Shown here one piece after another: positions 5,658 to 38,963 of a stretch of DNA of 64,000 nucleotides; within the stretch, counting starts at the first letter, position 1; every line of letters starts with the position of its first letter. The stretch is from an uncultured Ignavibacteria bacterium (GTDB lineage Bacteria; Zixibacteria; MSB-5A5; WJJR01): contig CAZQIZ010000009.1 in the NCBI GenBank assembly GCA_964593585.1, forward strand, positions 306 through 64,305, read 5' to 3'. The notes beneath the pieces were generated by a model, which was not told where the DNA came from, did not search any database, and saw nothing but the letters and a program-made list of their open reading frames with translations. A program made the position numbers and the translations under genes.

Positions 5658-5678
5658 CCGGTGACGCGAATAATCGTT

Positions 5679-5777
5679 GCGGCAGGGATGCCCGTCCGCG
5701 TAATGCCGTTCCCGATCGCGGGGCAAAAAAGCGCCCCGCAATCGGGAACGGCAGGTCAGACAGGAATGTCTGATCTC
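5679..5777. repeat. Copy 2 of the ~100-bp structured direct repeat
   Basis: gcggcagggatgcccgtccgcg..atgccgttcccgatcgcg.ggcaaaaaagcgccccgcaatcgggaacggcaggtcagaca.gaatgtc matches 4519-4618 with ~5 mismatches. Same orientation; the two copies flank the frameshifted gene. Confidence 0.6.
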
Positions 5778-5925
5778 CTATGAGAAACTTCTTTTCAATT
5801 GGGTCGCGGCGTCTTGTGCCGCGACCGGCTTGGAATCTTTGTTCCCCCGACCGCTTGCCAAATCCGCAAAATCCCGTACCTTGCGGAGTGATTTGCTCGT
5901 TTTACTTCACACAGACGGACTGCGA

Positions 5926-17989: not shown

Positions 17990-18892
17990 CTACCGGACCG
18001 GCGGCAGCACGTGCATCCTCACGCCCATCCCGAATCGGCGGAAGACATCCAGCGGCGGCTCGGTGCCCTCCGTTTCGATCACGGGGCAGATGTCCTGACA
18101 GTTCTGGCCGCAAGTGCTGGTGGCATAGTACACACTGCCCTGCGCCTCGGGATGGAAGCGCATGGTAAAGGCCAGCACCGAATCGGCGGTGATCACCGGC
18201 AGGGGAAAGCGGAACTGCGCCGCACGGTTGTCATCGCTCAGTCCGCTTAGTTCGATCACACAACGACTCTGCCCGATCAATGCCCCGTCATACCGATCGG
18301 CGCGGCAATCCATCAGGATCGTGTACACTCCCGCCGCGCTCGATGACAGATTGAGCACAACCTCCGCCAAACGCCCCAGCGGAACCTGGGTGACATAAAA
18401 GCCACGGCGCACGTGATCGCCGCCGGTGCTGAACGGGCACTCGAAAGCGGTCGCCATCGCGAATTGATCGTAGGGCGTTGCCATCGCCGCGTTCGAGAGC
18501 TCCGACCAGTTGTCGTCCTCGTCCACCGCGCGCAGGACAAAACCGTAGACCGTGCCCCAGCCCAACCCCTCGACCTCAAAGGTGTCGACATCCCCGGCGC
18601 GCTTCGGCGCCCACTGGTGGACCACCGCCGTCATGCCGCTCCAGTCCATCGAGTCCAGATCCACCCGCCAGTATCGCAGATCGTACCCCGACGCCTTGCC
18701 GGCGCTGCTGTCGTCGCCGGGCGAGGTCCAGGCCAACGTCACGCTTGATCCCGACGAGTCGATCACGCGCAAATCGGTGATCGCCGCCGGTGCCACGATG
18801 TCATCCTCGCCCTCCTCATCGCCGCATCCGCCCAGCCACAAACCCGCGACCAAGAGCATGGCCGCCGCCGCTGCCCACCTCCCTGCCTTCAT
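17990..18892 (-). CDS. Lipoprotein with fibronectin-III-like domain, unknown function
   Basis: ATG at 18892 (minus strand) preceded by GGAGGT. Lipobox MKAGRWAAAAAMLLVAGLWLGGC. Segment VTLAWTSPGDD...GYDLRYW suggests FN3-like. The longer ORF-track start at 19027 lacks an RBS. Confidence 0.6.
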   Translation of the reverse strand: MKAGRWAAAAAMLLVAGLWLGGCGDEEGEDDIVAPAAITDLRVIDSSGSSVTLAWTSPGDDSSAGKASGYDLRYWRVDLDSMDWSGMTAVVHQWAPKRAGDVDTFEVEGLGWGTVYGFVLRAVDEDDNWSELSNAAMATPYDQFAMATAFECPFSTGGDHVRRGFYVTQVPLGRLAEVVLNLSSSAAGVYTILMDCRADRYDGALIGQSRCVIELSGLSDDNRAAQFRFPLPVITADSVLAFTMRFHPEAQGSVYYATSTCGQNCQDICPVIETEGTEPPLDVFRRFGMGVRMHVLPPVR

Positions 18893-19241
18893 GTCAACCT
18901 CCGGGGAAGTGAAGGTATTGTGATTACTGCCACTATCTACCGGCAATCCACCGACGCGCGCGGTGCCATGCCATCGCAGACAGCAGGGGAGAGTCGCCTC
19001 GACAACGGACCCAACAAATGACCGCATTCACTTTGTAGGCGAGAGATTTCGGGCAATCGTATGGGGTGCGACAACCTGGACAAACGGGAGTTATACTGTC
19101 CTGTACGCTTGATCGGGCGACCGACCTTGTACCGCTGACGCCGTCGCGCCGTCCTGATAACGGGCCCCCGGCACATCGGGGGCGAGGCGGCATTCGCGCC
19201 AGACCCATTACATCCACACTCCGCATCTGAAGGAGACAGAC

Positions 19242-20915: not shown

Positions 20916-20926
20916 GAGGCCTTGTC

Positions 20927-23494: not shown

Positions 23495-23583
23495 CGTCAG
23501 CGCGCCGACAATACCGAACGCGGTGTTTGTCCCAGTTGGACACCGATTCACCTCTCATCGCTGGAGCTTTGGTGGAGGACCTC

Positions 23584-25623
23584 ATGATTCGACGTGCCAT
23601 TGCGAGGATCTCGTTGGTGTGCGCCGCTGCCCTCACCGCGTACGCCGCTGTGCCCGCCAGCATCACCGTGCAGGGCAAACTGACCGATGTGTCCGGCAAT
23701 CCGCTGCCGGCCGGATCGAAGAACTTCGTTTTCAAGATTTACGATGCCCCCACGCTGGGCAATGAGATCTGGCCCAACGGGGCAGGGGAAAATCAGTCGC
23801 TGACCAGCGACGCATCCGGCCTCTGGATCGGCCTGGTCGGCGCGGTGGTACCGCTGACCGACGCGGTCTTCAGGGACACGGTTCGTTGGTTGGAAGTCAC
23901 CGTCGACGGGACTACGCTGCCGCGCGTGCGACTGGTCACGGGCCCCTATGCGCACCGTGCCGCGACCGTGGATGGCGCTTCCGGCGGTGCAATCATCGGT
24001 TCGCTGTCGGTCGGTTTGAACAATGCCGCCACCGGTTTCGAGACTTTCGCCGCCGGACGTGCAAACACCGCCAGCGGGCATTACTCTGCTGTCGATGGAG
24101 GCCTCGATAATGCGGCCATCGCGACTTACTCCGTCGTCGGCGGAGGCTGGAAAGACACCGCCTCTGGCTGGGCTTCCGTCGTCGATGGCGGCGAGTTAAA
24201 TCGCGCCTATGGTCTCTGGTCGACAGTGGGAGGGGGAGGCAGTAACCAGGCCATTGATCAGGGAACAACAATCGCAGGCGGCGGCAGCAGTATCGCGCGG
24301 GGGCTCAACGCTACAATCGGCGGAGGCGCGAACAACCTGACCGATGCGCCATTTGCAACACTGTCCGGCGGCGAATACAATGCCGCGCGCGGCACGCATG
24401 CGACAATCGGAGGCGGCAGGGGAAATTTGACGTATGGGCAATTTTCCACCATCGCCGGGGGCGGGGGCGGCCTCCCGCAAGACTCCAACTCCGCGCGCGG
24501 CGATTACTCAGTCGTCGTCGCCGGACGTCGAAACCATGCTTCTGGTTTTGAATCAACCATAGGAGGCGGCACAACCAATCGGGCCGCGGGCTCGGGCTCC
24601 ACCATCCCCGGCGGCAGCTGCAATAGCGCCGTCGGCGCAAACAGCTTTGCCGCGGGCGTTGGCGCAAAGTCGAACCACCCCGGCAGTTTCGTGTGGAACA
24701 GCGCGAGCAGTTGCGCCGACAGCTTCGCCTCTACGGCCGCGAATCAATTCCTCGTTCGTGCAGCCGGCGGTGTCGGCGTCAACACCGCAAGCCCGAATCG
24801 AACCTTGACCGTCATTGGGGACATGGGAGTAAGCGGCCCGGTCGGGATCGGGACGACCAACCCCAACAAGACACTCACCGTCGATGGCGACATGGAAATC
24901 GGCGTGGCGTCTGGCGACTATCATCACATGCGCATCGGCGGCGGCAATTCATCCGGTTTCCTCTATGGCAGTTACGCGCGTTATGGTGACGGCATTCACA
25001 TGGGCTATAACTACCACGCCAACGCGGCCGGAAATCCTGTCGTGATCGCGGCCGGAGGAGGGACAAGCCGCTTGTCGCTCGGGTACGGATGGATGGCGGG
25101 GTACATCGGCGGGACAGGCGCTGAGCCGACAACCCGATCCTTCTATGTCGAACCCAACGGCAACTTCCGGGTGGACGAGGCGCTGCTTGTCGACGGTACG
25201 GGCAATTTCTACAACGGCATGTACATCTGGAATGGCCTGAGTCTGCAAAGTGGCAACATGATACTCTACGGAGACATCTGGAGAGGCGGTTGTTACGCGA
25301 ACTTCACGTGTCCCTCTGACCTGCGCTTGAAGAAAAACGTCAAGCCGCTCGCCGATCCCATTGGCAATATCCGGCGATTGCATGGTGTGCGATTCGACTG
25401 GCGACGTGAGGAATTTCCCGATCGCGAATTCCCGGAAGACAATCAGATCGGGCTGATTGCGCAGGAAGTTCTTGAGGTTGCTCCGACGGCGGTCACCAGG
25501 CACACGGACGGCTACATGAGTGTCGACTACGCCAAACTCGTGCCGCTCCTCATCGAGGGTATGAAGGAACAGCAGAAGCGGATCGAGAAACTGGAGGAGA
25601 CCATTCGGCGAATGCAGCCGTAA
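23584..25623 (+). CDS. Fibre-like surface protein paralog C (~680 aa), with S74-like C-terminal chaperone domain
   Basis: ATG 23584 after GGTGGAGGA; the ORF-track TTG start at 23527 is less likely. Signal peptide MIRRAIARISLVCAAALTAYA. N-domain ~95% identical to paralog B at nucleotide level. C-terminus CPSDLRLKKNVKPL...IGLIAQEVLEVAPTAV...LIEGMKEQQKRIEKLEE. Confidence 0.85.
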   Translation: MIRRAIARISLVCAAALTAYAAVPASITVQGKLTDVSGNPLPAGSKNFVFKIYDAPTLGNEIWPNGAGENQSLTSDASGLWIGLVGAVVPLTDAVFRDTVRWLEVTVDGTTLPRVRLVTGPYAHRAATVDGASGGAIIGSLSVGLNNAATGFETFAAGRANTASGHYSAVDGGLDNAAIATYSVVGGGWKDTASGWASVVDGGELNRAYGLWSTVGGGGSNQAIDQGTTIAGGGSSIARGLNATIGGGANNLTDAPFATLSGGEYNAARGTHATIGGGRGNLTYGQFSTIAGGGGGLPQDSNSARGDYSVVVAGRRNHASGFESTIGGGTTNRAAGSGSTIPGGSCNSAVGANSFAAGVGAKSNHPGSFVWNSASSCADSFASTAANQFLVRAAGGVGVNTASPNRTLTVIGDMGVSGPVGIGTTNPNKTLTVDGDMEIGVASGDYHHMRIGGGNSSGFLYGSYARYGDGIHMGYNYHANAAGNPVVIAAGGGTSRLSLGYGWMAGYIGGTGAEPTTRSFYVEPNGNFRVDEALLVDGTGNFYNGMYIWNGLSLQSGNMILYGDIWRGGCYANFTCPSDLRLKKNVKPLADPIGNIRRLHGVRFDWRREEFPDREFPEDNQIGLIAQEVLEVAPTAVTRHTDGYMSVDYAKLVPLLIEGMKEQQKRIEKLEETIRRMQP

Positions 25624-25756
25624 TCACGGCCATCTCGCCTGAACCAACCGTGACCTTCTGCCAGCTCTTGCCCGCGCTCGGAAGCGAAGTGTGCCGTGCG
25701 CCCGCCGACTTTCCCCGGCGAATGAGGTTGAATTTCCTCCCTCTTTTGGCCGAGCT

Positions 25757-25770
25757 GGACTATATTAATC
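25757..25770 (+). promoter_or_regulatory. Conserved GGACTATATTA motif (-10-like TATATT) 66 nt upstream of the paralog D start
   Basis: The same CAGACTATATTAC motif lies 70 nt upstream of the paralog E start (28711-28725). AT-rich hexamer in an otherwise GC-rich intergenic region. Confidence 0.25.
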
Positions 25771-25835
25771 CCGATTTCCGTCTCGGACGGACGCAGTCTG
25801 CCCGTTTACCGCTGTCTGCCAATTTGGAGGACCTT

Positions 25836-28586
25836 ATGACCCGAAGTGCCATTGCGGGGATCTTGCTGGTGTGTGCCGCTGCCCTCACCGCGTACGCCGC
25901 CGTGCCCACCAGCATCACCGTGCAGGGAAAACTCACCGACGCCGGCGGCAACCCGCTCTCCGCCGGTCCGAAGAATTTCACATTCAAGATCTTTGACGCC
26001 TCTGTCGGCGGCGGCCAATTCTGGCCCGATGCCGGTGGCGAGAATCAAGTCATCACCACCGCCACCGATGGCACCTGGGTGGGTCTGGTCGGCGCGGTGA
26101 TCCCGATCCTGCTTGATGCCTTCGCCGACACATCACGCTGGCTGGAGATCACTGTCGACGGCATCACTCTGCCGCGCGTCCGCCTCGTGACCGGTCCCTA
26201 CGCGTACCGTGTCGGCACCGTCGACGGCGCCTCCGGCGGCACCATCACGAGCAAAGTGGCAATTGGCGAAGGGCACTTCAACGTCGGCTTCCACACATTC
26301 GTCGCCGGATTCGACAACAACGTCGACGGCGATTTCACGAGCGTGACGGGCGGCCGGAGCAATTCGGCCACCGGACAATTCTCGCACATCAGCGGCGGCG
26401 AAAATGACACGGCCAGTGGCAATCACTCAACCGTCGGCGGCGGCTTGCACAACCGGGCCACGCAATTGGAAACGACCATCGGCGGCGGACGCGACAATCT
26501 GGCCTCAGGCTTCGCCGCCACCATTGCGGGCGGCCGGGAGAATCAGGCGACGGCCACGGAGGCGACGGTCGGTGGCGGGCAACTCAATATCGCCGGCGGC
26601 AGCAACGCCACCATCGGTGGCGGTCAGGAAAACACCGCCACCGCTTTTGCCGCCACGATTGCCGGTGGCTATCAAAACAACGCGAGCGGAGGGCAGTCGG
26701 TGATCGGCGGGGGAGAAGGAAATATTGCCGCGGGGCTGTACTCGTCTGTCCTGAGCGGATTTGAGAATCGCAGCACGGCGGAGGGAGCAGTGATCGCGGG
26801 GGGCGCCGCCAACCGGGCGTCCGGCATCTATTCCTTTGTCGGCGGAGGCGGAGGAGCGTTGCCGGATTCCAATGCCGCTTCGGGCTCCTGGTCGAGTGTG
26901 GTCGGTGGCAGCCATAACGTCGCAAGCGGTCTGACGGCCTTTGTCGGGGGCGGTTCCGGCAATATTGCCAAGTCCGGAAGTGCCGCCATCGTCGGCGGAC
27001 AGAACAACCGCGCCGATACCGGCAGCACCTTCATCGGCGGCGGACGTGACAACCACGTCGATCAGGTGGATGCGGTCATCGGCGGCGGTTGGATGAACGA
27101 GGCATTGGGCAATACATCCGCGATTCTGGGCGGACGGAGCAATGTGGCCTCCGGCGCCGGCAGCGCCATCGTCGGCGGCGTTACCAACCGCGCACGCGGG
27201 GCGTTCTCATTTGTCGGAGGCGGCGGCGGAACCACCGCCACCGATTCCAATCTCGCGTTGGGAGACCTGTCCACAATCGCCGGCGGACGCGCCAATCTCG
27301 CGACCGGAGCATACAGCGTTGTCGGTGGCGGACAGAATAACGCCGCCACCCAGTTGGAAGCCAACGTCGGCGGAGGCAATGGCAACCGAGCCACCGGCAT
27401 TGCTTCAACAGTGGCCGGCGGACGGTCCGACACCGCCGCCGGGAGTTTTTCCACTGTCGGCGGTGGAATCCGCAATCGCGCCAATGACTACGCCACCGTC
27501 GCGGGCGGGATGGAAAACCGCGCCATCGGTAATTACGCAACCATTGGCGGTGGAAATCGCAACTTCGCTGAATTCGCCAGCACCATTGCCGGCGGACAAT
27601 TCAACACGGCGTCAGCCACCAATGGCGCCAGCATCGTGGGGGGCGTGCAAAACACGGCCGATGGTAGCTTCTCGTTTATCGGCGGTGGGTACCACAACCA
27701 GACCTACGGCGACTTGTCAACCATCGGCGGTGGAGGCGGAAGCAGCGACATCGACTCCAACGTTACGCGCGGATTGTGCGCCACCATCCCCGGCGGACGC
27801 CGCAACCGCGCCAACGGCAGCTTCTCCTTCGCCGCCGGACGACGCGCGCATGCCTTGCACCACGGCACTTTTGTCTGGGCCGATTCCACCGAAGCCGATT
27901 TCGTCTCGACCGCGCAGGACCAGTTCCTCATCCGCGCCTCCGGCGGTGTCGGCATCGGCACCAACGCGCCGGAAGGCCCCTGGCATGTGCAGAAGGGCAG
28001 CGCGGGCGCCGTCACCGCCAACAGCAACTCCATCGCCGTCTTTGAGACCAGCGCAAGCAATGGCTGGCTCTCCATCCTCGGCCCCGACAACGCGGAGCGC
28101 GGATTGCTGTTCACCGAACCGTCGAGCGCGGTGGCCGGGGCCATCGTCTTCGATCAGGGCGGCGGCGGAGATGACATCGGCTTCCGGACCGGAGGTAACG
28201 TTACGCGCATGACCCTTGATGCGTCTGGGAACCTCACGGTGTCAGGTTGTGTCGACGGCAACAACACGGCCTGTGCCTCCGATGAGCGATTCAAGACAAA
28301 CATCGCCACGGTCGATGACGCGCTGGCGCTTGTCGGGCGGCTGCGGGGTGTCCGGTACGAATGGCGCCGTGAGGAGTTCCCCGATCACTCCTTCGACGCC
28401 GGCGCACAGTACGGGGTCATTGCTCAGGAGGTCCGCGAAGTTCTGCCCGAGGTTGTCCGCGAGCGCGCCGATGGCTACCTCTCCGTCGAGTACAATGCGT
28501 TGATCCCGCTGCTGATCGAAGGCATGAAGGAGCAGCAACGCCAGATCGACGAGCTGAAGGCGGCGCTGCGCGCTCTCACCCCGTAG
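25836..28586 (+). CDS. Fibre-like surface protein paralog D (~916 aa), with S74-like C-terminal chaperone domain
   Basis: ATG 25836 after GGAGGA; the ORF-track start at 25650 lacks an RBS. Signal peptide MTRSAIAGILLVCAAALTAYA. Conserved N-domain. Very long Gly/Asn/Ala repeat region. C-terminus CASDERFKTNIATV...YGVIAQEVREVLPEVV...LIEGMKEQQRQIDELKAALRALTP. Confidence 0.85.
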   Translation: MTRSAIAGILLVCAAALTAYAAVPTSITVQGKLTDAGGNPLSAGPKNFTFKIFDASVGGGQFWPDAGGENQVITTATDGTWVGLVGAVIPILLDAFADTSRWLEITVDGITLPRVRLVTGPYAYRVGTVDGASGGTITSKVAIGEGHFNVGFHTFVAGFDNNVDGDFTSVTGGRSNSATGQFSHISGGENDTASGNHSTVGGGLHNRATQLETTIGGGRDNLASGFAATIAGGRENQATATEATVGGGQLNIAGGSNATIGGGQENTATAFAATIAGGYQNNASGGQSVIGGGEGNIAAGLYSSVLSGFENRSTAEGAVIAGGAANRASGIYSFVGGGGGALPDSNAASGSWSSVVGGSHNVASGLTAFVGGGSGNIAKSGSAAIVGGQNNRADTGSTFIGGGRDNHVDQVDAVIGGGWMNEALGNTSAILGGRSNVASGAGSAIVGGVTNRARGAFSFVGGGGGTTATDSNLALGDLSTIAGGRANLATGAYSVVGGGQNNAATQLEANVGGGNGNRATGIASTVAGGRSDTAAGSFSTVGGGIRNRANDYATVAGGMENRAIGNYATIGGGNRNFAEFASTIAGGQFNTASATNGASIVGGVQNTADGSFSFIGGGYHNQTYGDLSTIGGGGGSSDIDSNVTRGLCATIPGGRRNRANGSFSFAAGRRAHALHHGTFVWADSTEADFVSTAQDQFLIRASGGVGIGTNAPEGPWHVQKGSAGAVTANSNSIAVFETSASNGWLSILGPDNAERGLLFTEPSSAVAGAIVFDQGGGGDDIGFRTGGNVTRMTLDASGNLTVSGCVDGNNTACASDERFKTNIATVDDALALVGRLRGVRYEWRREEFPDHSFDAGAQYGVIAQEVREVLPEVVRERADGYLSVEYNALIPLLIEGMKEQQRQIDELKAALRALTP

Positions 28587-28600
28587 AAATCTGACACGGC

Positions 28601-28651
28601 CGATCCGCTTTCGCCCACTTTCCTGACCACAGGAGCGGCGAAAGCGGATCG
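28601..28651 (+). terminator. 15-bp inverted repeat (cgatccgctttcgcc ... ggcgaaagcggatcg) immediately after the paralog D stop; possible terminator or regulatory stem-loop
   Basis: Perfect 15-bp arms separated by a 21-nt loop. No T-tract, so function as an intrinsic terminator is uncertain. Confidence 0.3.
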
Positions 28652-28710
28652 CGCCAGTCCGGTTTGAACCCCGGAATCGGGCCGAAATCCCTCTCCTACT
28701 TCTTTCAGAT

Positions 28711-28725
28711 CAGACTATATTACTC
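28711..28725 (+). promoter_or_regulatory. Conserved CAGACTATATTAC motif (-10-like) 70 nt upstream of the paralog E start
   Basis: Matches the motif upstream of paralog D. Confidence 0.25.
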
Positions 28726-28794
28726 GCAAATCCCGTCACCGCGACGGCCGCTGTCTTACCTGTTGTTAAAACTGATCGTACCAGGAGGTCGCCA

Positions 28795-31302
28795 ATGACT
28801 CGCCGTATCATGACGGGAGTTCTCCTGCTGTTGGCTTTATCCACTACGGCGCACGCCGCCGTCCCGACCAGCATCACCGTGCAGGGCAAACTGACCGATT
28901 TGTCCGGCAACCCGCTGCCCGCCGGATCGAAGAATTTCACCTTCAAGATTTTCGATTCCCCCACGCTCGGCAATGAAATCTGGCCCAATGGGGCAGGGGA
29001 GAATCAGTCGCTGACCAGCGACGCCGCCGGTCTCTGGATCGGACTGGTCGGCGCGGTGGCACCGCTGACCGATGCGGTCTTCAGCGACACGGTTCGCTGG
29101 CTGGAAATCACCGTCGATGGGACCACGCTGCCGCGCGTGCGGCTTGTGACCGGGCCCTATGCCTACCGGGTATCGACGATCGACGGCGCCTCCGGCGGCA
29201 GGATCACCTCGAAGGTCACGATTGGCCTGTCCAACGCGAACACCGGCAACGACGGGTTTGTCGCCGGAACGGATAATCAGGCGCTCGCCAACTACACGGT
29301 CATCGGCGGCGGCGTACTGAACACCGCCACCGGCGAATCGAGCGTCGTGTCAGGCGGTCAGCAGAACGACGCGACCGGCTTCGCCGCCAGTGTCGCAGGT
29401 GGAGCGAACAACACCGCGTCCAACACACACGCGACCGTTGGCGGCGGATTGACGAATATGTCATCCGGCCTCCACTCCGTTATCGATGGCGGAATCTACA
29501 ATTTTGCGACGAGTACGGGATCCGTCGTTGGCGGCGGCGCCAACAATAACGCGCGCGGCCAGTATTCCACCGTCGCCGGCGGCGGGCCGGCCCTGACGGA
29601 CTCCAACACGGCCGGCGGCGACTTCTCGCGCATCGGCGGCGGCTTCGGCAATGTGGCGTCGGGGCACGCCAGCAGCATCGATGGCGGCCACTACAACATC
29701 GCGTCCGGGCTCTACAGCACGATCGGAGGCGGTCAATTCAACGCCGCCCAGGGCACGTTCTCGACGATCGCCGGCGGTGGAATCGCAAACATCTTCAATG
29801 GCCAGAACATCGCCGAGGGTTACGCGACGGTGATCGGCGGGGGCTCCGCGAACCGTGCCGTGCACAACTATTCAACGATCGGCGGCGGATTGAACGGACA
29901 GACACGGGGCGCATACTCCACGCTCGCCGGGGGATACAGCAATCTGACGGACGGCGACAATGCCACCGTGGGAGGCGGCGATCGCAACGCCGCCGCGGGG
30001 ACCGGCGCCACGGTGAGCGGCGGCACGCTTAACTACACAAACGCGATCGGTGCGGTTGTCGCCGGCGGCGACACCAATTCCGCGCAGGGCTTCTTTGCGG
30101 TCGTGGGCGGCGGCATCCTCAATGACGCCCCCGGCCACGAAAGCGTGGTCGAAGGGGGACGTGACAACACGGCCTCCGGCGATCTCGCCACCGTGGGCGG
30201 CGGCGCCTACAACACCGCATCGGGCGCCGGCTCGCACATCTCCGGTGGGTTCAATAATACGGCTGTCGGCGAACGCTCGACTATTGGTGGGGGAGAGCAG
30301 AACCGTGCCTATGGCAGTTTTGCCACTGTTTGTGGCGGCGGCGGCGGACTCCCAGTCGACTCGAATTCCGCCGCCGGCAATTTCTCATTCGTCGGTGGCG
30401 GGAGCCGCAACTCCGCCAGCGGCCCCGGCGCCGTCATCGCAGGCGGCGACTCAAACCGCTCCAAGGGCCAGAACTCAACGGTGGGCGGCGGCGGGTTCAA
30501 TGTCGCTGGCGGCACCAATGCAACAGTTCCGGGCGGCCTCGCGAACGAAGCCAATGCCCCCTTCACTTTTCCCGCCGGGTCGTTCGCGCACGCGAACCAT
30601 GCCGGGAGCTTCGTCTGGGCGGACCACAATTTTCTCGACTCATTCTACACGACTGCCACCAACCAGTTCATCATCCGTGCCAGCAGCGGCGTCGGCATCG
30701 GCACGAACACCCCGCAGCAGCTCCTCAGTGTCGCTCAGGGAATGAATATCGATCAGGCCAATGCGAACGATGGCGCACTTTGGAACGGCCTGAGCTTCGG
30801 CTCCACAAGCGGCGAAGGCATTGCTTCGAAACGTACCGCCGGCGGCAATCAGTATGGATTGGACTTCTACACCAACTCAATCAACCGTGTTAGCATTGCG
30901 AACGCGACCGGGTATGTTGGCTTCGGACTGACCAATCCATCCTATCGGATCGACCTGCCGAACGTCGCGAATGCCGCCGGCCAGGGCCGCGCGAATGCGT
31001 GGACGACGTATAGTTCACGCCGCTGGAAGACGAATATCACGACACTGTCCCACGCGGTCGACAAGGTCCGTCAACTCCGCGGCGTTGAATACGACAACGC
31101 CGCCGACAACCGCCACGCCATCGGGCTGATCGCCGAGGAAGTCGGCGCCGTCATCCCGGAAGTCGTGCAATACGAAGCCAATGGTGTCGATGCCGCCGCG
31201 CTGGACTATGGTCGTCTGGTTGCCGTGCTGATCGAGGCCATCAAGGAACAGCAGCGCCAGATCGATTTGCTCAATCGCAAACTGGAACGGATCACGCCTT
31301 AA
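28795..31302 (+). CDS. Fibre-like surface protein paralog E (835 aa), with S74-like C-terminal chaperone domain
   Basis: AGGAGG RBS. Signal peptide MTRRIMTGVLLLLALSTTAHA. N-domain nucleotide sequence ~100% identical to paralogs F and G over ~270 bp. C-terminus SSRRWKTNITTL...IGLIAEEVGAVIPEVV...LIEAIKEQQRQIDLLNRKLERITP. Confidence 0.85.
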   Translation: MTRRIMTGVLLLLALSTTAHAAVPTSITVQGKLTDLSGNPLPAGSKNFTFKIFDSPTLGNEIWPNGAGENQSLTSDAAGLWIGLVGAVAPLTDAVFSDTVRWLEITVDGTTLPRVRLVTGPYAYRVSTIDGASGGRITSKVTIGLSNANTGNDGFVAGTDNQALANYTVIGGGVLNTATGESSVVSGGQQNDATGFAASVAGGANNTASNTHATVGGGLTNMSSGLHSVIDGGIYNFATSTGSVVGGGANNNARGQYSTVAGGGPALTDSNTAGGDFSRIGGGFGNVASGHASSIDGGHYNIASGLYSTIGGGQFNAAQGTFSTIAGGGIANIFNGQNIAEGYATVIGGGSANRAVHNYSTIGGGLNGQTRGAYSTLAGGYSNLTDGDNATVGGGDRNAAAGTGATVSGGTLNYTNAIGAVVAGGDTNSAQGFFAVVGGGILNDAPGHESVVEGGRDNTASGDLATVGGGAYNTASGAGSHISGGFNNTAVGERSTIGGGEQNRAYGSFATVCGGGGGLPVDSNSAAGNFSFVGGGSRNSASGPGAVIAGGDSNRSKGQNSTVGGGGFNVAGGTNATVPGGLANEANAPFTFPAGSFAHANHAGSFVWADHNFLDSFYTTATNQFIIRASSGVGIGTNTPQQLLSVAQGMNIDQANANDGALWNGLSFGSTSGEGIASKRTAGGNQYGLDFYTNSINRVSIANATGYVGFGLTNPSYRIDLPNVANAAGQGRANAWTTYSSRRWKTNITTLSHAVDKVRQLRGVEYDNAADNRHAIGLIAEEVGAVIPEVVQYEANGVDAAALDYGRLVAVLIEAIKEQQRQIDLLNRKLERITP

Positions 31303-31313
31303 GGAGCGCTCTT

Positions 31314-33587
31314 ATGCGACAACTCACGCTCGGACTGCTCGCCTTGCTGCTGGCCACGACGCCCCTTCACGCCGCCGTCCCGGCCAGCATCACCGTGCAG
31401 GGCAAACTGACCGATCTGTCCGGCAACCCGCTGCCCGCCGGATCGAAGAATTTCACCTTCAAGATTTTCGATTCCCCCACGCTCGGCAATGAAATCTGGC
31501 CCAATGGGGCAGGGGAGAATCAGTCGCTGACCAGCGACGCCGCCGGTCTCTGGATCGGACTGGTCGGCGCGGTGGCACCGCTGACCGATGCCGTCTTCAG
31601 CGACACGGTTCGCTGGCTGGAAATCACCGTCGATGGCACGACCCTGCCGCGGGTGCGCCTGGTAACAGGGCCCTATGCGCATCGTGTCGCCACCGTCGAT
31701 GGCGCATCGGGCGGCACGATCACCAGCAAGGTCTCCATCGGTCCGGGTCACATCAACACGGGCACCCACGCCTTCGTCGCCGGCTCCTACAACGTCGGAA
31801 CGGGCAATTACTCGACCATTGCCGGCGGTGAAACCAACACCGCCTCCGGCGACCGCGGCAGTGTCGGCGGCGGCGCGCAGAATCACGCCGAAGGATTCGG
31901 TTCCACTGTTGACGGCGGCTGGTACGGCCACGCCTGGGGCAACTTTGCCGTGATCGGCGGCGGCGGCGGGATCTTCGATATGGATTCTAACAGCGCCGGC
32001 AACTGGGGCGTGGTGGCCGGCGGGCACATGAACCATGCGATCGGCGAAGGCGCGGTCGTCGGTGGCGGCGCGCGCAATCGCGCCCGCGGCGAATACTCCG
32101 TCATTGCCGGCGGCGGCGGCTTCACCGATGCCGATTCGAATGTCGCCTCCGGCTCCCACGCCGTCATCGGTGGCGGCACCGGCAACACTGCCTCCGGATT
32201 CCACAGTCTGATCGGCGTCGGACGCTCCAATCTCGCCAGCGGCTATCACGCCGCCATCCTCAGCGGCGCCATCAACGTGGCCGGCGGACAGTACGGCGTC
32301 GTGGCGGGCGGGTACGACAACCACGCCATCGGCTGGATGTGCTCGATTGTCGGCGGCGCCAGCAATCGCGCCGACAACAACAACTCCTTTGTGGGAGGCG
32401 GGGAATACAATGAGGCCACCGGCTCACATGCCGTCATCGGCGGCGGCCAGAGCAATCAGGCCCTCGGTGATTACTCCGTCATCGCCGGCGGCGGCAATAC
32501 CAGCGCCGACTCCAACCGCGCGCAGGGGGCATACTCGGCCATCGGCGGCGGAAACCTCAACCTCGCCATGGCTGACTACGCCGTCACCTGCGGCGGCCTG
32601 AAAAACGGCGCCTGGGGATATGGCAGCGGCGTCGCCTCCGGATACCTCAACGAAGCGGAGGGAACGTACTCGTTCATCGGGGGCGGCAACAACAACCTCA
32701 TCCTCTACGCGCGCTCCTTCATCGGCGGCGGCGAGGGCGGCCAGGTGAGCGGCCAGCACTCCGTCATCGCCGGCGGCAACGGCAATTACGTCGGCTCCGA
32801 TGTAGCCTCCATCGTCGGCGGCACACGCAACATGATCAACTTCACCAACTCGGGCGGTTCCTTCATCGGCGGCGGCTGGGAAAACTATGTCGATGGTTTC
32901 GACGCGGTTGTCGGCGGCGGATTCCATGATTCCGCCTCCGGCAATCAGGCGGCGGTCTGTGGCGGCCACACCAACCACGCCGCCGGAAACCTCTCGTTCG
33001 TCGGCGGGGGGGACTTCAACCGCGCCACCGGCGACTGGGCCTGCATCCCCGGCGGCGGCTCGAACGCCGCCGCGGGCCAGTTCGCCTTCGCCGCGGGACG
33101 TCAGGCCAAGGCCAATCACAGCGGCGCCTACGTCTGGTCCGACAACAACCCCTTCGACTTCGCCTCGCTGGCCAATAACAGTTTCTCGGCGCGCTGCCTC
33201 GGCGGCGCGCGCTTCGTGACCGCCATCAGCGCCGGCGGCGTCCCCACACAGGGCGTGACTCTGGCCGCCGGCGGCGGATCGTGGGCGGGGATCTGCGACA
33301 GCGCCGTCAAGGAGAACATTCGCGACGTCGACGGCGCCGAAATCCTCCGCCAACTCGCCGCCCTGCGCATCGCCGAGTGGAATTACATCGCCCAGGATGA
33401 CAGCGTCCGTCACCTCGGGCCCATGGCGCAGGACTTCCGACGCGCCTTCGGCATCGGCGAAGACGATCGCCACATCACCCAGGTCGACGCCGATGGCGTC
33501 GCGCTGGCCGCCATTCAGGAGCTCATCCGCCGCATCGAAATGCTGGAAGGCGAGCTCGCGCGGCTCCGCGCACGGAATGGCGATTGA
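31314..33587 (+). CDS. Fibre-like surface protein paralog F (757 aa), with a divergent S74-like C-terminal domain
   Basis: AAGGAG RBS, ATG 11 nt after the paralog E stop. N-domain identical to paralog G over ~370 bp. Divergent C-terminus CDSAVKENIRDVDGAEILRQL...LGPMAQDFRRAFGIG...LAAIQELIRRIEMLEGELARL retains the K-x-N-I and A-Q-x-x / I-x-E-L pattern. Confidence 0.8.
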   Translation: MRQLTLGLLALLLATTPLHAAVPASITVQGKLTDLSGNPLPAGSKNFTFKIFDSPTLGNEIWPNGAGENQSLTSDAAGLWIGLVGAVAPLTDAVFSDTVRWLEITVDGTTLPRVRLVTGPYAHRVATVDGASGGTITSKVSIGPGHINTGTHAFVAGSYNVGTGNYSTIAGGETNTASGDRGSVGGGAQNHAEGFGSTVDGGWYGHAWGNFAVIGGGGGIFDMDSNSAGNWGVVAGGHMNHAIGEGAVVGGGARNRARGEYSVIAGGGGFTDADSNVASGSHAVIGGGTGNTASGFHSLIGVGRSNLASGYHAAILSGAINVAGGQYGVVAGGYDNHAIGWMCSIVGGASNRADNNNSFVGGGEYNEATGSHAVIGGGQSNQALGDYSVIAGGGNTSADSNRAQGAYSAIGGGNLNLAMADYAVTCGGLKNGAWGYGSGVASGYLNEAEGTYSFIGGGNNNLILYARSFIGGGEGGQVSGQHSVIAGGNGNYVGSDVASIVGGTRNMINFTNSGGSFIGGGWENYVDGFDAVVGGGFHDSASGNQAAVCGGHTNHAAGNLSFVGGGDFNRATGDWACIPGGGSNAAAGQFAFAAGRQAKANHSGAYVWSDNNPFDFASLANNSFSARCLGGARFVTAISAGGVPTQGVTLAAGGGSWAGICDSAVKENIRDVDGAEILRQLAALRIAEWNYIAQDDSVRHLGPMAQDFRRAFGIGEDDRHITQVDADGVALAAIQELIRRIEMLEGELARLRARNGD

Positions 33588-33640
33588 TGAAATCGGAGTT
33601 TTTGCTCGCCCGTATCTGGGCGGATTGACAGGAGGTCCCG

Positions 33641-35731
33641 ATGCGATTCACCATCCGATTGTCACTCATCGTGCTCTTGCTGTTGCCGTCACTGGCGCAC
33701 GCCGCCGCCCCGACCAGCATCACCGTGCAGGGCAAACTGACCGATCTGTCCGGCAACCCGCTGCCCGCCGGATCGAAGAATTTCACCTTCAAGATTTTCG
33801 ATTCCCCCACGCTCGGCAATGAAATCTGGCCCAATGGGGCAGGGGAGAATCAGTCGCTGACCAGCGACGCCGCCGGTCTCTGGATCGGACTGGTCGGCGC
33901 GGTGGCACCGCTGACCGATGCCGTCTTCAGCGACACGGTTCGCTGGCTGGAAATCACCGTCGATGGCACGACCCTGCCGCGGGTGCGCCTGGTAACAGGG
34001 CCCTATGCGCATCGTGTCGCCACCGTCGATGGCGCATCGGGCGGAACCATCACCAGCAAAGTGTCCATCGGCCCCGGCCACACGAACACTGGCAACCATG
34101 CCTTCGTAGCTGGAGAAGGCAATGCGGCGTCCGGGCACTACGCCACCGTCAGCGGCGGCATCGGCCACAACGCCGGCGGTGAGAACGCTGTGGTGGGCGG
34201 CGGCGCTTACAACCGCGCCGATGGTCTCTCGTCCGTCGTGGCCGGCGGCTACGCCAACGCCGCGCTCAACACCGACGCGGTTGTCGTCGGCGGCTACGCC
34301 GATTCCGCCCTTGGCTATCGCTCCTTTATCGGCGGCGGCGCCGACAACAACACCAGCGCCGATGCCAGCAGCGTCGTCGGCGGCACCGCCAACCTCGCCG
34401 GCGGCGGCGGATCGTTCATCGGCGGCGGCATCGGCAACAAGACCGCTGGCTTCGATGCCGTCGTGGCCGGCGGCGCGACCAATGTCGCTTCCGGGTCACG
34501 CTCGTTCGTGGGCGCCGGGCAGAGCGATTCCGCGCTCGGAGCGCGCTCCGCCGTCGTCGCCGGACAACTCAATTCCGCCTACGGCTCTCAATCCTTCATC
34601 GGCGCCGGCGGCAGCAACCGTGCCGGCAACTCCGCCGCCGTCGTCGCCGGAAGCGCCAGCGAAGCCACCGGCAACGCCGCCTTCATTGGCGCCGGCACCC
34701 TCAACGAGGCGTCGGGACTGTACGCGGTCATCGGCGGCGGCTCCCAGAACATTGCCACGCACTACGGCGCCGTGGTGGTCGGCGGCGAGAACAACGATGC
34801 CGACTCGACGCTCACGTTTGTCGGCGGCGGCGTTCACAACATCGCCCGCGGTAACCTCTCTGCGGTGGTCGGCGGCAGCAGCAATCAGGCGCTGGCACCC
34901 AACGCCTTCGTCGGCGGCGGCGCCAATAATGTTGCCTCCAACTTCTACAGTGTCGTCGCCGGCGGATTCTACGATTCGGCCAGTGGAGGAAACGCCGTTG
35001 TCGGCGGCGGCTACTTCAATCTCGCCGAAGGTTCCGTGTCAACCATTGCCGGCGGCAGTTATGGACGCGCCCGTGGCGGTTTCTCCTTCATCGGCGGCGG
35101 TGGATTCTTCGGCGATGCCGACTCCAATTACACGCACGGCACCGGCTCCGCCGTCGTCGGCGGCGCCCGCAACGGCGCGCTCGGCGACTACGCCGTCGTG
35201 CCCGGCGGATATGGCAATCGCGCCGTCGGTAGCCACTCCATGGCGGCGGGCGAAAACGCCTCCGCCGACCACGATCACTCCTTCGTCTGGAATGACAACT
35301 CGGCGGGCGCGTTCGCCTCGACCGCCGCCAGTCAATTCGCGATTTCTGCCGCCAATGGACTGCGGCTGGCGCGCGCCGCCGGCGACGCCAAGGCGATTGT
35401 GCCGGGTGATCACTACCGCGACAACGGCATCATCGCCTGGGCCAAAGTCGCCGGCAGCAGCGGCGCCATCGGCACCAATGAGTTCGGCGTCGTGTCCGTT
35501 GTACGCAATTCCACCGGGTACTACACCATCACCCTCGACGCCTCCGCGAGCGTCTCCACGACACTTATTCCGGTGGTCACGGCGCTGGTCGACCGCGCGC
35601 CGACCGATCCCTCGTTCGCCCGGCTGATCTATGCCCAGCAGGTTGGCATCAACTCGTTCAGCGTCTATGTCACCGATGGCAACTACGCCGCCGCCGACAC
35701 CGATTTCACCTTCCTGGTGACCGCACGATAA
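33641..35731 (+). CDS. Fibre-like surface protein paralog G (696 aa), lacking the S74-like chaperone domain and ending in a different C-terminal domain
   Basis: AGGAGG RBS. Signal peptide MRFTIRLSLIVLLLLPSLAHA. Conserved N-domain. Gly/Asn/Ala/Val repeats. C-terminal ~150 aa (GIIAWAKVAGSSGAIGTNEFGVVSVVRNSTGYYTITLDASASV...) has no SDxRLK or LIEAxKE motifs. Confidence 0.8.
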   Translation: MRFTIRLSLIVLLLLPSLAHAAAPTSITVQGKLTDLSGNPLPAGSKNFTFKIFDSPTLGNEIWPNGAGENQSLTSDAAGLWIGLVGAVAPLTDAVFSDTVRWLEITVDGTTLPRVRLVTGPYAHRVATVDGASGGTITSKVSIGPGHTNTGNHAFVAGEGNAASGHYATVSGGIGHNAGGENAVVGGGAYNRADGLSSVVAGGYANAALNTDAVVVGGYADSALGYRSFIGGGADNNTSADASSVVGGTANLAGGGGSFIGGGIGNKTAGFDAVVAGGATNVASGSRSFVGAGQSDSALGARSAVVAGQLNSAYGSQSFIGAGGSNRAGNSAAVVAGSASEATGNAAFIGAGTLNEASGLYAVIGGGSQNIATHYGAVVVGGENNDADSTLTFVGGGVHNIARGNLSAVVGGSSNQALAPNAFVGGGANNVASNFYSVVAGGFYDSASGGNAVVGGGYFNLAEGSVSTIAGGSYGRARGGFSFIGGGGFFGDADSNYTHGTGSAVVGGARNGALGDYAVVPGGYGNRAVGSHSMAAGENASADHDHSFVWNDNSAGAFASTAASQFAISAANGLRLARAAGDAKAIVPGDHYRDNGIIAWAKVAGSSGAIGTNEFGVVSVVRNSTGYYTITLDASASVSTTLIPVVTALVDRAPTDPSFARLIYAQQVGINSFSVYVTDGNYAAADTDFTFLVTAR

Positions 35732-36245
35732 TTCCCGCGACACGGGCCGGCAGTTGTGCCGGCCCGTGCGCACGTACCGCCATGGCTGGATGGCAACGCG
35801 CCGTCAAGAGCGCCGCACATCGGATGACGCTTCCATAATGTCATCCTGAGCGAGGCGAAGGATCTGCTTTTCGCGGGTGGCTGCATTCGAAAGCAGATTC
35901 CGATCGGAGTGACATGGGGAGCAAGCGCGTCCTGGGAGGGCTCTCCGCCGCGGCGGATCGCCCTCCCGCGCACATCTACCTGACTTGGCTGCCGCCAAGT
36001 TTTCGCAACCTTTCGCGCTCCGCCCCGTCTAATCCGCAGGCGCCCCTGACGCGCCCCGATAAACCATTACATGGCTAGTCAGTCCATAGTCGCTGACATT
36101 CAATAGGATAGGGCCCTTCGCCTCGCCGATCGCTTCAATCTGCCTCTGGCGAAAGCAGACCGCTTTTGGCTATCCTTCCGCTCTGTTTTGCGCATCGAAT
36201 GACATTTCGTCCATGATCAATAACCAATCACCAAAAGGAGTCCGC

Positions 36246-38963
36246 ATGAAGTCCGCTCGTTGGGCGCTCGCCTTGGCCCTGCTGATCGCCTTCGCGACAC
36301 CGGCCCTCTCGGCCGACCTGCCGCCGATCAACCACGAGAAGTATGAACTCCCCAACGGTCTCGATGTCATCCTGCATGTCGACAAGACCATCCCGACCGT
36401 CACCGTCAACATCTGGTACCATGTCGGCTCCAAGAACGAAGAGAAGGGACGCACCGGCTTTGCCCACCTCTTCGAGCACATGATGTTCCAGGGCTCCAAG
36501 CACCACGACACCGACTATTTCGCCCCGCTGGAGAAAGTTGGTGGCGAGGTCAACGGCTCCACCTCCGAGGATCGCACCAACTACTACGAGACCGTGCCGA
36601 GCAACTACCTCGAGCTCGCCCTCTGGCTCGAAGCCGACCGCATGGGCTACCTCCTGCCGGCCATGACCCAGGAGCGTCTCGACAACCAGCGCGATGTGGT
36701 CAAAAACGAGCGCCGTGAGGGTGTCGACAACCAGCCCTATGGCCGTGTCTGGGAAAACCTCGGCTGGCTCATGTATCCCGAAGAGCATCCTTACAACTGG
36801 CCGGTCATCGGCTACATGGAAGACCTCTCGGCCGCCTCGCTGGAGGATGTGCAGAACTTCTTCAAGCTTTACTATGCGCCCAACAACGCCTCGCTGTGCG
36901 TGACCGGGGACTTCGATCCGGCGGAGGCCAAGGCGCTGATCGAAAAGTACTTTGCCGCCATTCCGGCCGGGCAGCCGATCATGCGCAAGGAAGCGTGGAT
37001 TCCCGAACTCGATGGCATCCGTCGCGGACAGATGGAAGATGCCGTTTCGTTGGCGCGCGTCTACTATGCGTTCCCCAGCCCCGGATATTACACCCCCGGC
37101 GACGCCGAACTCGACATTCTCGCCAATGCGCTCACCAACGGCAAGACCTCGCGCCTCTACAAGTCGCTGGTCTATGACAAGCAGATCGCGCAGGATGTCG
37201 CCGCCTTCCAGTCCTCCTCGGAGCTGTGCGGCAACTTCATCATTCAGGCCACTGCGCGCGAGGGGCACACGCTCGCCGAACTGGAAGCCGCGCTCGACGC
37301 CGAACTGAAAAAGATTCTGGCGGAAGGCATCACCGCCACCGAACTGGCCAACACTCAGGCGCAGTTGGAGGCCGGCTTTGTCCGCTCGCTCGAAGATCTC
37401 GGACGCCGCGCCGACAAGCTGAATGAGTACAACGTCTTCCTCGGCGATCCCGACAAGTTCGAGTGGGATCTCGATCGGTATCAGAATGCCACCGTCGCCG
37501 GCGTCAACGCCGCAGCCAAGCGCTGGATCGACCTCGACCGCCGCGTGATCTTCCATGTCCTCCCGCAGGGCACCTATGTCGCTGCCGAGGACAAGCTCGA
37601 CCGCTCCATCAAGCCGACCGCGGCGGCCGATCCGTCGTTCACTCCGCCGGCGATCCAGAAGGACAAACTCTCCAACGGCGTCGAAGTCTGGCTGGTGCAG
37701 GACGACAAACTCCCGCTGGTCCAGACCAACATCGTCTTCAAGGGCGGCTGGGCGCTCGAACCGGCCGGCAAGGCCGCCGTCGGCTCGATGACCTCCGACA
37801 TGATGGACGAGGGCACCAAGACCCGCACCGCTCTGCAGATTTCCGAGGAAGCCAAAAGCATCGGCGCCAACCTCGGCACCGGCTCCTCGTTCGATAACAT
37901 GAGCGTGTCGCTCAACGTGCTGAAAAAGTACCTCGATCGCGGCTATGCGCTCTTGGCCGACATCCTGATGAATCCCACCTTCCCGCAGGAAGAGCTCGAC
38001 CGGCAGAAGAAGATGTACATGGGACGTATCGCGCAGGAAAGCAAGCAGCCGAACACCGTGGTGCAGAAGACCTTTCTCAGGACGCTCTACGGCGCCGATC
38101 ATCCCTATGGCCGCCCCTTCACCGGATCCGGCACCAAGGCCTCAATCAACGCCATCACGCGCGACGACCTGGTCGCGTTCCATCAGGCCAACTATGTGCC
38201 GTCTAATGCCGCCATCGCGGTGGCCGGCAACATCACCATGGCCGAGGCCAAAGCCGCCCTCGAGAAGGCCTTCAAGGGCTGGGCCTCGACCGCGCCCGCC
38301 CCGGTGGTCAACATCCCCGACCCGGCGCCGGTCACCAAGACCCAGGTCGTGATCGTCGACAAGCCCGGCGCGCCGCAGAGCGCGATCATGGTCGGCCACG
38401 CCGGCATCAAGCGCTCCGATCCCGACTACATGCCGATCCGCGTCATGATGAACGTGCTCGGCTCGCAGTTCACCAGCCGCATCAACATGAACCTGCGCGA
38501 GGACAAGGGCTACACCTACGGCGCCTTCGGCAATTTCGCGGCGCGCCGCGGCACAGGCCCCTTCCTGGTCACCGCCCAGGTCCAGACCCCCAACACCAAG
38601 GAAGCCGTCTTTGAATTCGTCAAGGAACTGCGCGACATCATCTCCACCCGCCCCGTCTCCGCCGAGGAACTCGAGGACGCCAAAAACGACCTGATCAAGT
38701 CGTTCCCCAGCGGCTTCGAATCGATCGGCGCCGTGGCCGGCGGCATGAGCACGATGTTCTCCTATGACCTGCCCCTCGATGAGTGGCAAACCTTCGCCGC
38801 GCGCGTCAACGCCGTCGATCTGGCCGCCGCCAACCGCGCCGCGACCAACCACATCAATCCCGACGCGCTCCTGATCGTGATCGTCGGCGATCGCGCCAAA
38901 ATCGAGGAAGGCATCAAGTCGCTCAATCTCGGCGATGTGGCCTTTGTCTTGGCCGAGGAGTAG
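36246..38963 (+). CDS. Secreted M16-family (pitrilysin/insulinase-like) zinc metallopeptidase, duplicated M16 unit (~905 aa)
   Basis: AAGGAG RBS. Signal peptide MKSARWALALALLIAFATPALSA. Inverted zinc motif HLFEHMMFQG (HxxEH) near the N-terminus. A second M16-like half in residues ~470-900. Confidence 0.85.
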   Translation: MKSARWALALALLIAFATPALSADLPPINHEKYELPNGLDVILHVDKTIPTVTVNIWYHVGSKNEEKGRTGFAHLFEHMMFQGSKHHDTDYFAPLEKVGGEVNGSTSEDRTNYYETVPSNYLELALWLEADRMGYLLPAMTQERLDNQRDVVKNERREGVDNQPYGRVWENLGWLMYPEEHPYNWPVIGYMEDLSAASLEDVQNFFKLYYAPNNASLCVTGDFDPAEAKALIEKYFAAIPAGQPIMRKEAWIPELDGIRRGQMEDAVSLARVYYAFPSPGYYTPGDAELDILANALTNGKTSRLYKSLVYDKQIAQDVAAFQSSSELCGNFIIQATAREGHTLAELEAALDAELKKILAEGITATELANTQAQLEAGFVRSLEDLGRRADKLNEYNVFLGDPDKFEWDLDRYQNATVAGVNAAAKRWIDLDRRVIFHVLPQGTYVAAEDKLDRSIKPTAAADPSFTPPAIQKDKLSNGVEVWLVQDDKLPLVQTNIVFKGGWALEPAGKAAVGSMTSDMMDEGTKTRTALQISEEAKSIGANLGTGSSFDNMSVSLNVLKKYLDRGYALLADILMNPTFPQEELDRQKKMYMGRIAQESKQPNTVVQKTFLRTLYGADHPYGRPFTGSGTKASINAITRDDLVAFHQANYVPSNAAIAVAGNITMAEAKAALEKAFKGWASTAPAPVVNIPDPAPVTKTQVVIVDKPGAPQSAIMVGHAGIKRSDPDYMPIRVMMNVLGSQFTSRINMNLREDKGYTYGAFGNFAARRGTGPFLVTAQVQTPNTKEAVFEFVKELRDIISTRPVSAEELEDAKNDLIKSFPSGFESIGAVAGGMSTMFSYDLPLDEWQTFAARVNAVDLAAANRAATNHINPDALLIVIVGDRAKIEEGIKSLNLGDVAFVLAEE

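Follow-up and report, generated by a model that had tools for sequence, protein, structure and literature searches.

The locus described here raises the question of how tandem gene copies whose proteins are only distantly alike can carry stretches of nearly identical DNA with sharp edges. The window, i.e. the whole stretch analysed (64,000 nucleotides (nt); assembly GCA_964593585.1, contig CAZQIZ010000009.1, positions 306 to 64,305 of the forward strand), contains seven tandem, co-oriented and tightly spaced paralogs, A to G, on the + strand between positions 19242 and 35731. An initial annotation made from the letters of the DNA had ascribed mosaic blocks in these genes to ongoing gene conversion or cassette exchange. 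In this study, the extent of the blocks, their limits and the synonymous divergence inside and outside them were determined, and related loci were compared. With good confidence, segmental interlocus gene conversion of the 5′ block coding for the N-terminal domain, acting among ancient tandem fibre paralogs, explains the data best. The window lies on a contig of 94,073 bp from a metagenome-assembled genome (MAG) at NCBI, and the same locus was found on contigs of the Joint Genome Institute (JGI) from five samples. The nearest named relatives of the RecN protein and of the fibres encoded in the window belong to Candidatus Zixiibacteriota, and the source is probably an uncultured, Zixibacteria-related bacterium. 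The seven genes are as follows:

19242–20915, + strand: paralog A, 557 amino acids; signal peptide, N-domain, short beta-roll shaft, Peptidase_S74
20927–23494, + strand: paralog B, 855 amino acids; S74 type; N-domain in the homogenised B/C/E/F/G group
23584–25623, + strand: paralog C, 679 amino acids from the ATG at 23584, the open reading frame (ORF) opening at 23527; S74 type
25836–28586, + strand: paralog D, 916 amino acids from the ATG at 25836; S74 type
28795–31302, + strand: paralog E, 835 amino acids; S74 type
31314–33587, + strand: paralog F, 757 amino acids; divergent S74
33641–35731, + strand: paralog G, 696 amino acids; non-S74 tip, no S74 domain

From N- to C-terminus, each protein consists of a signal peptide ending in AxA, a conserved N-terminal domain (N-domain), a beta-roll shaft, and a C-terminal Peptidase_S74 domain (an intramolecular chaperone) or another tip. 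The N-domain (~125 amino acids; window positions 19293–19715 in A, equivalent positions in B to G) aligns without gaps across all seven paralogs. The shaft is built from 15-residue GGxxNxAxG repeats, visible in the DNA as a 45-nt period. Pfam detected PF13884 (Peptidase_S74) in A to F with 36–64 bits; G ends in a different tip. All seven copies are full-length, intact ORFs, each of which has a start codon and a signal peptide of its own. Strong divergence downstream of the blocks, as described initially, was evident at both levels: the full-length proteins are pairwise only 33–50% identical, and past position ~+490 (numbering below) no significant nucleotide similarity between the paralogs was found apart from weak shaft-repeat (67–83%) and short C-terminal matches. 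As their sequences indicate, A to G are old, diverged paralogs of secreted, phage-tail-fibre-like surface fibres.

For comparison of the copies, relative positions were counted from the first base of the ITVQG codons (A 19314, B 21002, C 23662, D 25914, E 28873, F 31389, G 33719), and the copies were compared without gaps. Three blocks stand out:

28852–29120, + strand: probably converted block in E; 269 nt, breakpoint at 29121 (+248)
31368–31714, + strand: probably converted block in F; 347 nt shared with G, the first 269 nt (to 31636) also with E; breakpoint at 31715 (+326)
33698–34044, + strand: probably converted block in G, partner of the F block; perfect run 33714–34044

Over 269 nt, E 28852–29120 matches F 31368–31636 and G 33698–33966 with three differences each. 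F and G remain together over 347 nt (31368–31714 and 33698–34044) with two differences, including a perfect run of 331 nt (31384–31714 and 33714–34044). The near-identity of ~270 bp with 2–3 differences reported for E, F and G was thereby reproduced. The abrupt end of the F/G block was also recovered, at 347 bp and not at the ~370 bp given before, and the starts formerly placed at ~28861, ~31378 and ~33715 fall within the blocks, which actually begin 9–17 nt further upstream. These 5′ starts coincide with the signal-peptide cleavage site. The signal-peptide and upstream intergenic DNA of E, F and G is mutually unalignable, so the blocks are bounded on the 5′ side as well.

On the 3′ side, identity does not decay gradually but drops in sharp steps at +248 and +326. 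Between E and F, synonymous divergence (dS) is 0.03 and nonsynonymous divergence (dN) 0.005 over −21 to +246, compared with dS 1.57 and dN 0.056 over +246 to +327. For F and G, dS values of 0 and 0.04 were obtained up to +327, followed by dS 1.21 and dN 0.055 over +327 to +390. Overall, dS is 0–0.03 within the blocks and 1.2–2.0 in the next 60–80 nt of the same conserved domain, an at least 40-fold step, while the protein stays conserved past both breakpoints (dN ≤0.056). The comparison of dS inside and outside the blocks, which had been proposed as a check, therefore gave clearly non-comparable values. Maximum chi-square analysis placed the breakpoints at +248 (E versus F/G) and +326 (F versus G). 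Permutation gave p ≤1e-4 for E–F, E–G and F–G, both with all sites and with synonymous third positions alone; the control pairs A–F, D–F and A–D had no breakpoint by this method (p 0.18–0.98). Counts of synonymous third-position differences before and after the breakpoint were 1/87 and 19/35 for E–F, and 0/113 and 10/20 for F–G. The segments are also incongruent: before +248, E is nearest to F/G (E–F identity 99%), and after it E is the farthest from F/G among B, C, D and E. Over +246 to +327, E–F identity is 75%, below that of B–F (85%) and D–F (80%). A dS jump across both points in a conserved protein is best accounted for by segmental gene conversion. The dS step, the differing 3′ boundaries, the two-sided bounds and the change of tree support the proposed recent recombination between copies.

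Two other origins of the blocks can be weighed against these values. Recent whole-gene tandem duplication followed by very fast, positively selected divergence downstream of the N-domain would fit the tandem, co-oriented arrangement, and surface-exposed parts often evolve fast. Yet past the breakpoints dN is 0.055 at a dS of 1.2–2.0, and positive selection does not erase synonymous identity. Moreover, the signal-peptide and intergenic DNA upstream is unrelated; because of these two-sided bounds, neither a recent whole-gene duplication nor a single unequal crossover can produce the blocks. This origin is highly improbable. The other is constraint on the nucleotide sequence itself, with an overlapping antisense gene, an RNA element or strong selection on codons holding the block invariant. 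Antisense ORFs with near-identical peptides do overlap the blocks in C, D, E and G (23433–23735, 25760–25987, 28710–28988 and 33523–33834), and the initial reading that they merely mirror the conserved blocks was borne out. Such a constraint would have to end differently depending on the pair compared (+248 or +326), be absent in A and D, and be relaxed in B and C (dS 0.27–0.35). No Rfam match was obtained in the window, and long antisense ORFs are routine in high-GC DNA. Constraint of this kind is next to impossible as the cause.

As short-read assemblers can collapse repeats, pop bubbles or smooth a consensus, the near-identity might also be created or inflated by assembly. For this reason the JGI contigs from the five samples, each covering part of the locus, were compared with the window over 10927–48963. 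Differences were found only at three codons, all of which lie within the blocks:

28957–28959, + strand (+84 to +86): variable codon in E; TCC (Ser) in the window, GCT (Ala) in L026, L001 and L032/L033
31563–31565, + strand (+174 to +176): variable codon in F; GTC in the window, L001, L026 and L027, ATT in L032/L033
33893–33895, + strand (+174 to +176): variable codon in G; GTC in the window, L026 and L027, ATT in L001 and L033

The assemblies thus differ as to where ATT replaces GTC: in neither F nor G, in one of them, or in both. The +174 site is ~150–180 nt away from the nearest base distinguishing F from G, and 150-nt reads could therefore not assign the variant to a copy. A block is interrupted in two assemblies, of which L027 begins at F +70 and L034 at G +199, and the TCC codon of E in the window disagrees with all three JGI assemblies of this population that were compared at the site, the Ala form being the only JGI form on record (five contigs). 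The window thus probably overstates the identity of E with F/G by 2 nt. All these features would be expected from assembly effects. However, assemblers smooth isolated single-nucleotide differences and not a divergence of ~10–25%, and the block structure, its limits and the sharp change to saturated dS recur in every independent assembly compared (JGI, five samples, and the NCBI MAG). Counting all variant codons, identity is still at least 98% for E with F/G and at least 98.8% for F with G. An assembly artefact as the source of the blocks is accordingly very unlikely. Segregating micro-conversion would look like the three codon variants, for which assembly ambiguity is at least as likely a cause. 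Of the ongoing conversion claimed initially, recent exchange is retained; that it is ongoing is suggested by the population variants, which are confounded by assembly ambiguity, and is unproven. In addition, the L027 contig lacks 19 nt of the F shaft (ACCAACCACGCCGCCGGAA; window 32970–32988), which causes a frameshift; ACC microhomology flanks the deletion. The deletion may be genuine and have made a pseudogene of F in that sample, or it may stem from an error of assembly.

Besides the young blocks, traces of earlier exchange were found in B, C and D:

20981–21328, + strand: older homogenised block in B; 88–91% identical to C, E, F and G, 20981–21121 95% identical to C
23641–23988, + strand: older homogenised block in C; 23641–23781 95% (134/141) identical to B
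23572–23640, + strand: leader of C with its signal peptide; matches D 25824–25892 at 87% (60/69), unrelated to B, E, F and G
25824–25892, + strand: leader of D with its signal peptide; counterpart of the C leader

A B/C subgroup of ~95% identity had been noted at first. It holds for the first ~140 nt (134/141 between −21 and +120) and not overall, since over 352 nt the identity of B with C is 90.9% and B is no closer to C than to F (91.0%). Compared with E/F/G, B and C have dS values of 0.27–0.35 before +246 and 0.62–0.95 after it (B alone: 0.27–0.29 and 0.62–0.78), a pattern that points to an earlier round of homogenisation. The mosaic gene C has three parts: a D-like leader and signal peptide, a B-like N-terminal block, and a unique remainder. 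The N-domain of A is at baseline divergence, with 66–69% nucleotide identity to the other paralogs. The same applies to the N-domain of D within the window; it is 82% identical at the amino acid level to a copy in another MAG (L005), which marks D as an old lineage.

For relative dating, a close relative was available in the contig L035 (Logan SRR26886374), a product of k-mer-based short-read assembly, with 94.7% nucleotide identity over A and its upstream region. The A ortholog of L035, A′, is A-like until ~78 nt before the stop codon and then continues with a B-type tail. The affected segment is:

20838–20915, + strand: 3′ tail of A; replaced in L035 by a B-type tail ~92% identical to B 23415–23494

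The dS between A and A′ is 0.156, and 1.75 in the last ~78 nt. As an observation on gene order, comparison of L035 1855–2182 with window segments 20838–20915, 23415–23503 and 25698–25838 placed a D-type leader directly after A′. Either B and C are missing between A and D in L035 or this short contig is chimeric. Taken at face value, the B-type tail and D-type leader at A′ mean that 3′ tails took part in the exchange as well and that close relatives differ in their arrays. With dS ≤0.03, the E/F/G blocks fall below the A–A′ value and are younger than the split from L035. The B/C layer, with dS 0.27–0.35 to E/F/G, exceeds that value and is older than the split.

Searches for further orthologs covered several collections. 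With full-length F as protein homology query, the best match was the paralog E at 48%, and no F ortholog was obtained; the N-domain alone returned only 10 fragments. A protein-pattern scan of metagenome contigs yielded only four loci, the closest being 80% identical to F at the nucleotide level and thus too distant as an ortholog. An exact 30-mer from the block had no match in a metagenome contig collection that itself holds no contigs of this locus. In three other MAGs with 4–9 copies, nucleotide identity between N-domains of the same genome is at most 73% over at least 100 nt, which suggests that the homogenisation is particular to the lineage and not inherent in the domain; comparable cases would, however, be hidden if repeats had collapsed in these three fragmented MAGs. 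A separate observation concerns L028, a related metagenome contig, in which 2527–5108 and 4883–7464 form a 2.36-kb tandem duplication with 99.4% identity adjoining a fibre gene, either a recent duplication or an assembly artefact.

Which kind of protein the homogenised segment belongs to was addressed by profile and structure comparisons. Run against the protein library, a profile of the N-domain matched 20,235 representative clusters (E ≤0.001); among the best 150 matches listed, nearly all start the domain ~20–48 residues from the N-terminus. In Pfam (E ≤0.01), no family matched the N-domain of the window proteins. The NCBIfam model NF053851 (Bdello_MAT_N) reached them at model positions ~2–45 only, with 15.7–21.5 bits against a cutoff of 60. 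Members of the N-domain family do exceed the cutoff, such as P0146, which matches the N-domain profile of the window at E 6e-30 and scores 88.7 bits on Bdello_MAT_N. This link supports a putative remote homology of the window N-domain to that family, not direct membership in Bdello_MAT_N. An AlphaFold2 model of the N-domain is a beta-sandwich (predicted local distance difference test score, pLDDT, 82.5), for which comparison with the PDB gave no strong match. The shaft matches the trimeric UspA1 head of Moraxella (PDB 3PR7; E 2e-22 and 5e-21) as well as 3NTN, and the S74 domain matches 6F45 and 7DC3. From the likeness of the shaft to this trimeric head, the fibres are presumed to be trimeric and surface-displayed, with the N-domain presumably anchoring them to the cell surface. 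The Ser-Lys dyad motif of S74, SDxxxK, is kept in A to D as read by manual alignment. As side observations from the same alignment, with approximate coordinates, the motif reads SSRRWK in E (Asp replaced; window ~31020–31045) and CDSAVK in F (Cys in place of the nucleophilic Ser; window ~33300–33330).

The superfamily of mosaic adhesive trimer (MAT) fibres in Bdellovibrio bacteriovorus offers the closest architecture (Caulton et al. 2024, PMC10769870). According to the searched passages of that paper, the MAT N-domain is inferred to retain the fibre at the cell surface, and tips have been "swapped" in evolution. The likeness to the MAT proteins, as far as these passages describe them, comprises a signal peptide followed directly by a conserved, beta-rich N-domain of ~130 amino acids, a beta-helical or beta-roll trimeric fibre, an autoproteolytic S74 chaperone or a non-S74 tip, and a multi-copy repertoire of mosaic proteins. 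In A to G, the conserved beta-rich domain likewise stands immediately after the signal peptide, and the C-terminus carries S74 (A to F) or an alternative tip (G). Unlike the MAT genes, those of the window form one tandem array, and the host has no known predatory lifestyle. The UspA1/UspA2 proteins and other trimeric autotransporter adhesins exhibit modular cassette mosaicism generated by recombination. The window shaft repeats match the UspA1 head of Moraxella catarrhalis, and the likeness to UspA1/UspA2 is confined to these head repeats. A YadA-like C-terminal membrane anchor was not found in A to G, Pfam giving only Peptidase_S74 at the C-termini. A to G are MAT-like fibres; because this anchor is missing, they are not trimeric autotransporters. 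With phage tail fibres and tailspikes they share the S74 chaperone and the combination of a conserved N-terminal module with variable distal parts, the classic phage mosaic. Unlike phage fibres, the window proteins carry signal peptides and are encoded among chromosomal housekeeping genes, and a pattern-based scan of viral contigs detected no N-domain relative.

This family background also bears on the reverse order of events, in which the N-terminal block was the stable part and shaft and tip modules were brought in from other paralogs or foreign DNA, using the N-terminal block and sometimes the S74 tail as homology arms. The evolutionary "tip swapping" inferred in the searched passages on MAT proteins (PMC10769870) would be a precedent. 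In the relative, the S74 tail of A′ is exchanged and a D-type leader comes directly after the gene, i.e. the array differs; furthermore, N-domain groupings conflict with C-terminal groupings. Nevertheless, E, F and G lack a shared 3′ arm, since the S74 domain of F is divergent, G has none, and there is no downstream homology. The E boundary at +248 is nested in the F/G block ending at +326, which fits conversion tracts and would be unexpected from three independent insertions. The 5′ signal peptides are non-homologous too, so the shared piece is an internal patch with the geometry of conversion. Swapping of this kind is unlikely as the origin of the blocks, although conversion of the N-terminal block and swapping of the downstream part are not fully separable.

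For segmental gene conversion, the following course would be consistent with the data. A to G are ancient tandem paralogs of a secreted trimeric-fibre family with Bdellovibrio MAT architecture, and the N-domain-coding segment alone offers the copies a long tract of homology that recombination can use. Homologous recombination of the general, RecA type would have repeatedly copied this segment non-reciprocally from one copy to another. At least four layers can be distinguished: an old round that homogenised B, C and the ancestor of E/F/G; a B–C exchange over −21 to +120; an F–G tract from ~−21 to +325; and a tract joining E to F/G from ~−21 to +247. The last two postdate the separation from the nearest known relative. 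On the 5′ side, every tract stops at the signal-peptide cleavage site, where the alignable sequence ends, and the 3′ limits would be ordinary tract ends within conserved codons. S74 tails and leaders would have been exchanged likewise. The net effect would be concerted evolution of the anchor module, with shafts and tips staying diverged. The data show the blocks, their breakpoints, the incongruent segments, the relative ages and the architecture of the family, whereas we infer by which pathway recombination proceeded, in which direction sequence was transferred and that the N-domain serves as an anchor; the absence of programmed variation machinery from the window together with seven intact ORFs would make general homologous recombination the parsimonious agent.

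Several points weigh against this course of events. Recombination cannot be observed directly, and donor and recipient are indistinguishable. All sequences are metagenome assemblies, in which smoothing of repeats longer than the reads leaves the last ~1% of identity uncertain. The L035 contig could be chimeric at a repeat, and no orthologs of E, F and G were found in the sister genome, so that the paralog-versus-ortholog comparison is confined to A–A′. Regarding the MAT architecture, the window proteins score only 15.7–21.5 bits on Bdello_MAT_N (cutoff 60).

Programmed variation, by silent cassettes with an expression site, a diversity-generating retroelement or a site-specific shufflon, is practically excluded in probability. 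A tandem surface-fibre repertoire with a shared recombinogenic segment superficially resembles antigenic-variation loci, but the window revealed neither a reverse transcriptase nor an invertase, integrase or transposase. Silent-cassette antigenic variation of the pilE/pilS, vlsE or msp2 type was ruled out, as all seven copies are full-length with start codon and signal peptide. A diversity-generating retroelement was rejected because the window encodes no reverse-transcriptase domain and the block mismatches are not adenine-specific. Against a site-specific inversion shufflon stand the lack of inverted repeats in 18000–37000, the co-orientation of the genes and the lack of a recombinase.

A mechanism that diversifies or homogenises a fibre repertoire had been envisaged at the outset. 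Homogenisation of the N-terminal segment was found, diversification was not. It is quite unlikely that the N-terminal block and the S74 tail, beyond being passively homogenised, act as a portable homology arm reshuffling the fibre repertoire on population time-scales, with the three variable codons as real, segregating micro-conversions and the array of the 95%-identical relative as a product of the same process. If true, an uncultured environmental phylum would possess a system of surface variation driven by recombination and based on MAT-like fibres, which mediate prey recognition in Bdellovibrio.

Interlocus gene conversion between bacterial paralogs is known from babA/babB of Helicobacter pylori, from the opa genes of Neisseria and from tufA/tufB. 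With such cases, the locus shares sharp-edged near-identity in diverged paralogs, the lack of dedicated machinery, and an outcome that is homogenising yet yields chimaeric alleles. It differs in that homogenisation affects the conserved anchor module shared by seven tandem fibre genes from an uncultured lineage, known from sequence alone. Concerted evolution in prokaryotes has been reviewed (PMC6053082), and ectopic recombination has been described for the yeast FLO adhesins (PMC3512402). Nucleotide-level conversion tracts were not found in the searched passages of the MAT paper (PMC10769870). Segmental gene conversion at the present locus is thus a known evolutionary process in a new setting and no new mechanism. 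It provides a clean, quantifiable case on the anchor module of a large, almost unannotated fibre family, and shows how fibre repertoires retain a common base while tips diverge. The family is architecturally related to the MAT prey-recognition fibres of Bdellovibrio and occurs here in an uncultured, probably Zixibacteria-related bacterium. Such arrays are at the same time hot spots of assembly ambiguity in MAGs, and the locus is suited to long-read measurement of intragenomic recombination in a natural population.

Some further features of the window were recorded. Promoter-like sites (5 versus 3.0 ± 2.0 expected from shuffling) are not above expectation, and terminator-like sites (21 versus 13.9 ± 3.7 in shuffled sequence) are in modest excess only. 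Upstream of the array, four ORFs (5830–8631, 12050–13699, 13993–16365 and 16385–17920) encode secreted proteins with FG-GAP, multihaem-like CxxCH (13993–16365) or Sortilin/BNR features. Their 3′ ends code for a similar Cys-rich, dockerin-like C-terminal module with ~70–78% nucleotide identity between copies, which is probably a common sorting or anchoring domain. A 100-nt direct repeat with 94% identity and no Rfam match is located at 4519–4618 and 5680–5779, one copy at the 5′ end of ORF 4492–5277 and the other upstream of ORF 5830–8631. It holds a palindrome with a 12-nt stem (GCCGTTCCCGAT...ATCGGGAACGGC). Finally, ORF 61600–62790 gave a borderline Pfam match to Phage_capsid_4 (28.3 bits; cutoff 27) and could be a prophage remnant or an encapsulin-like gene.

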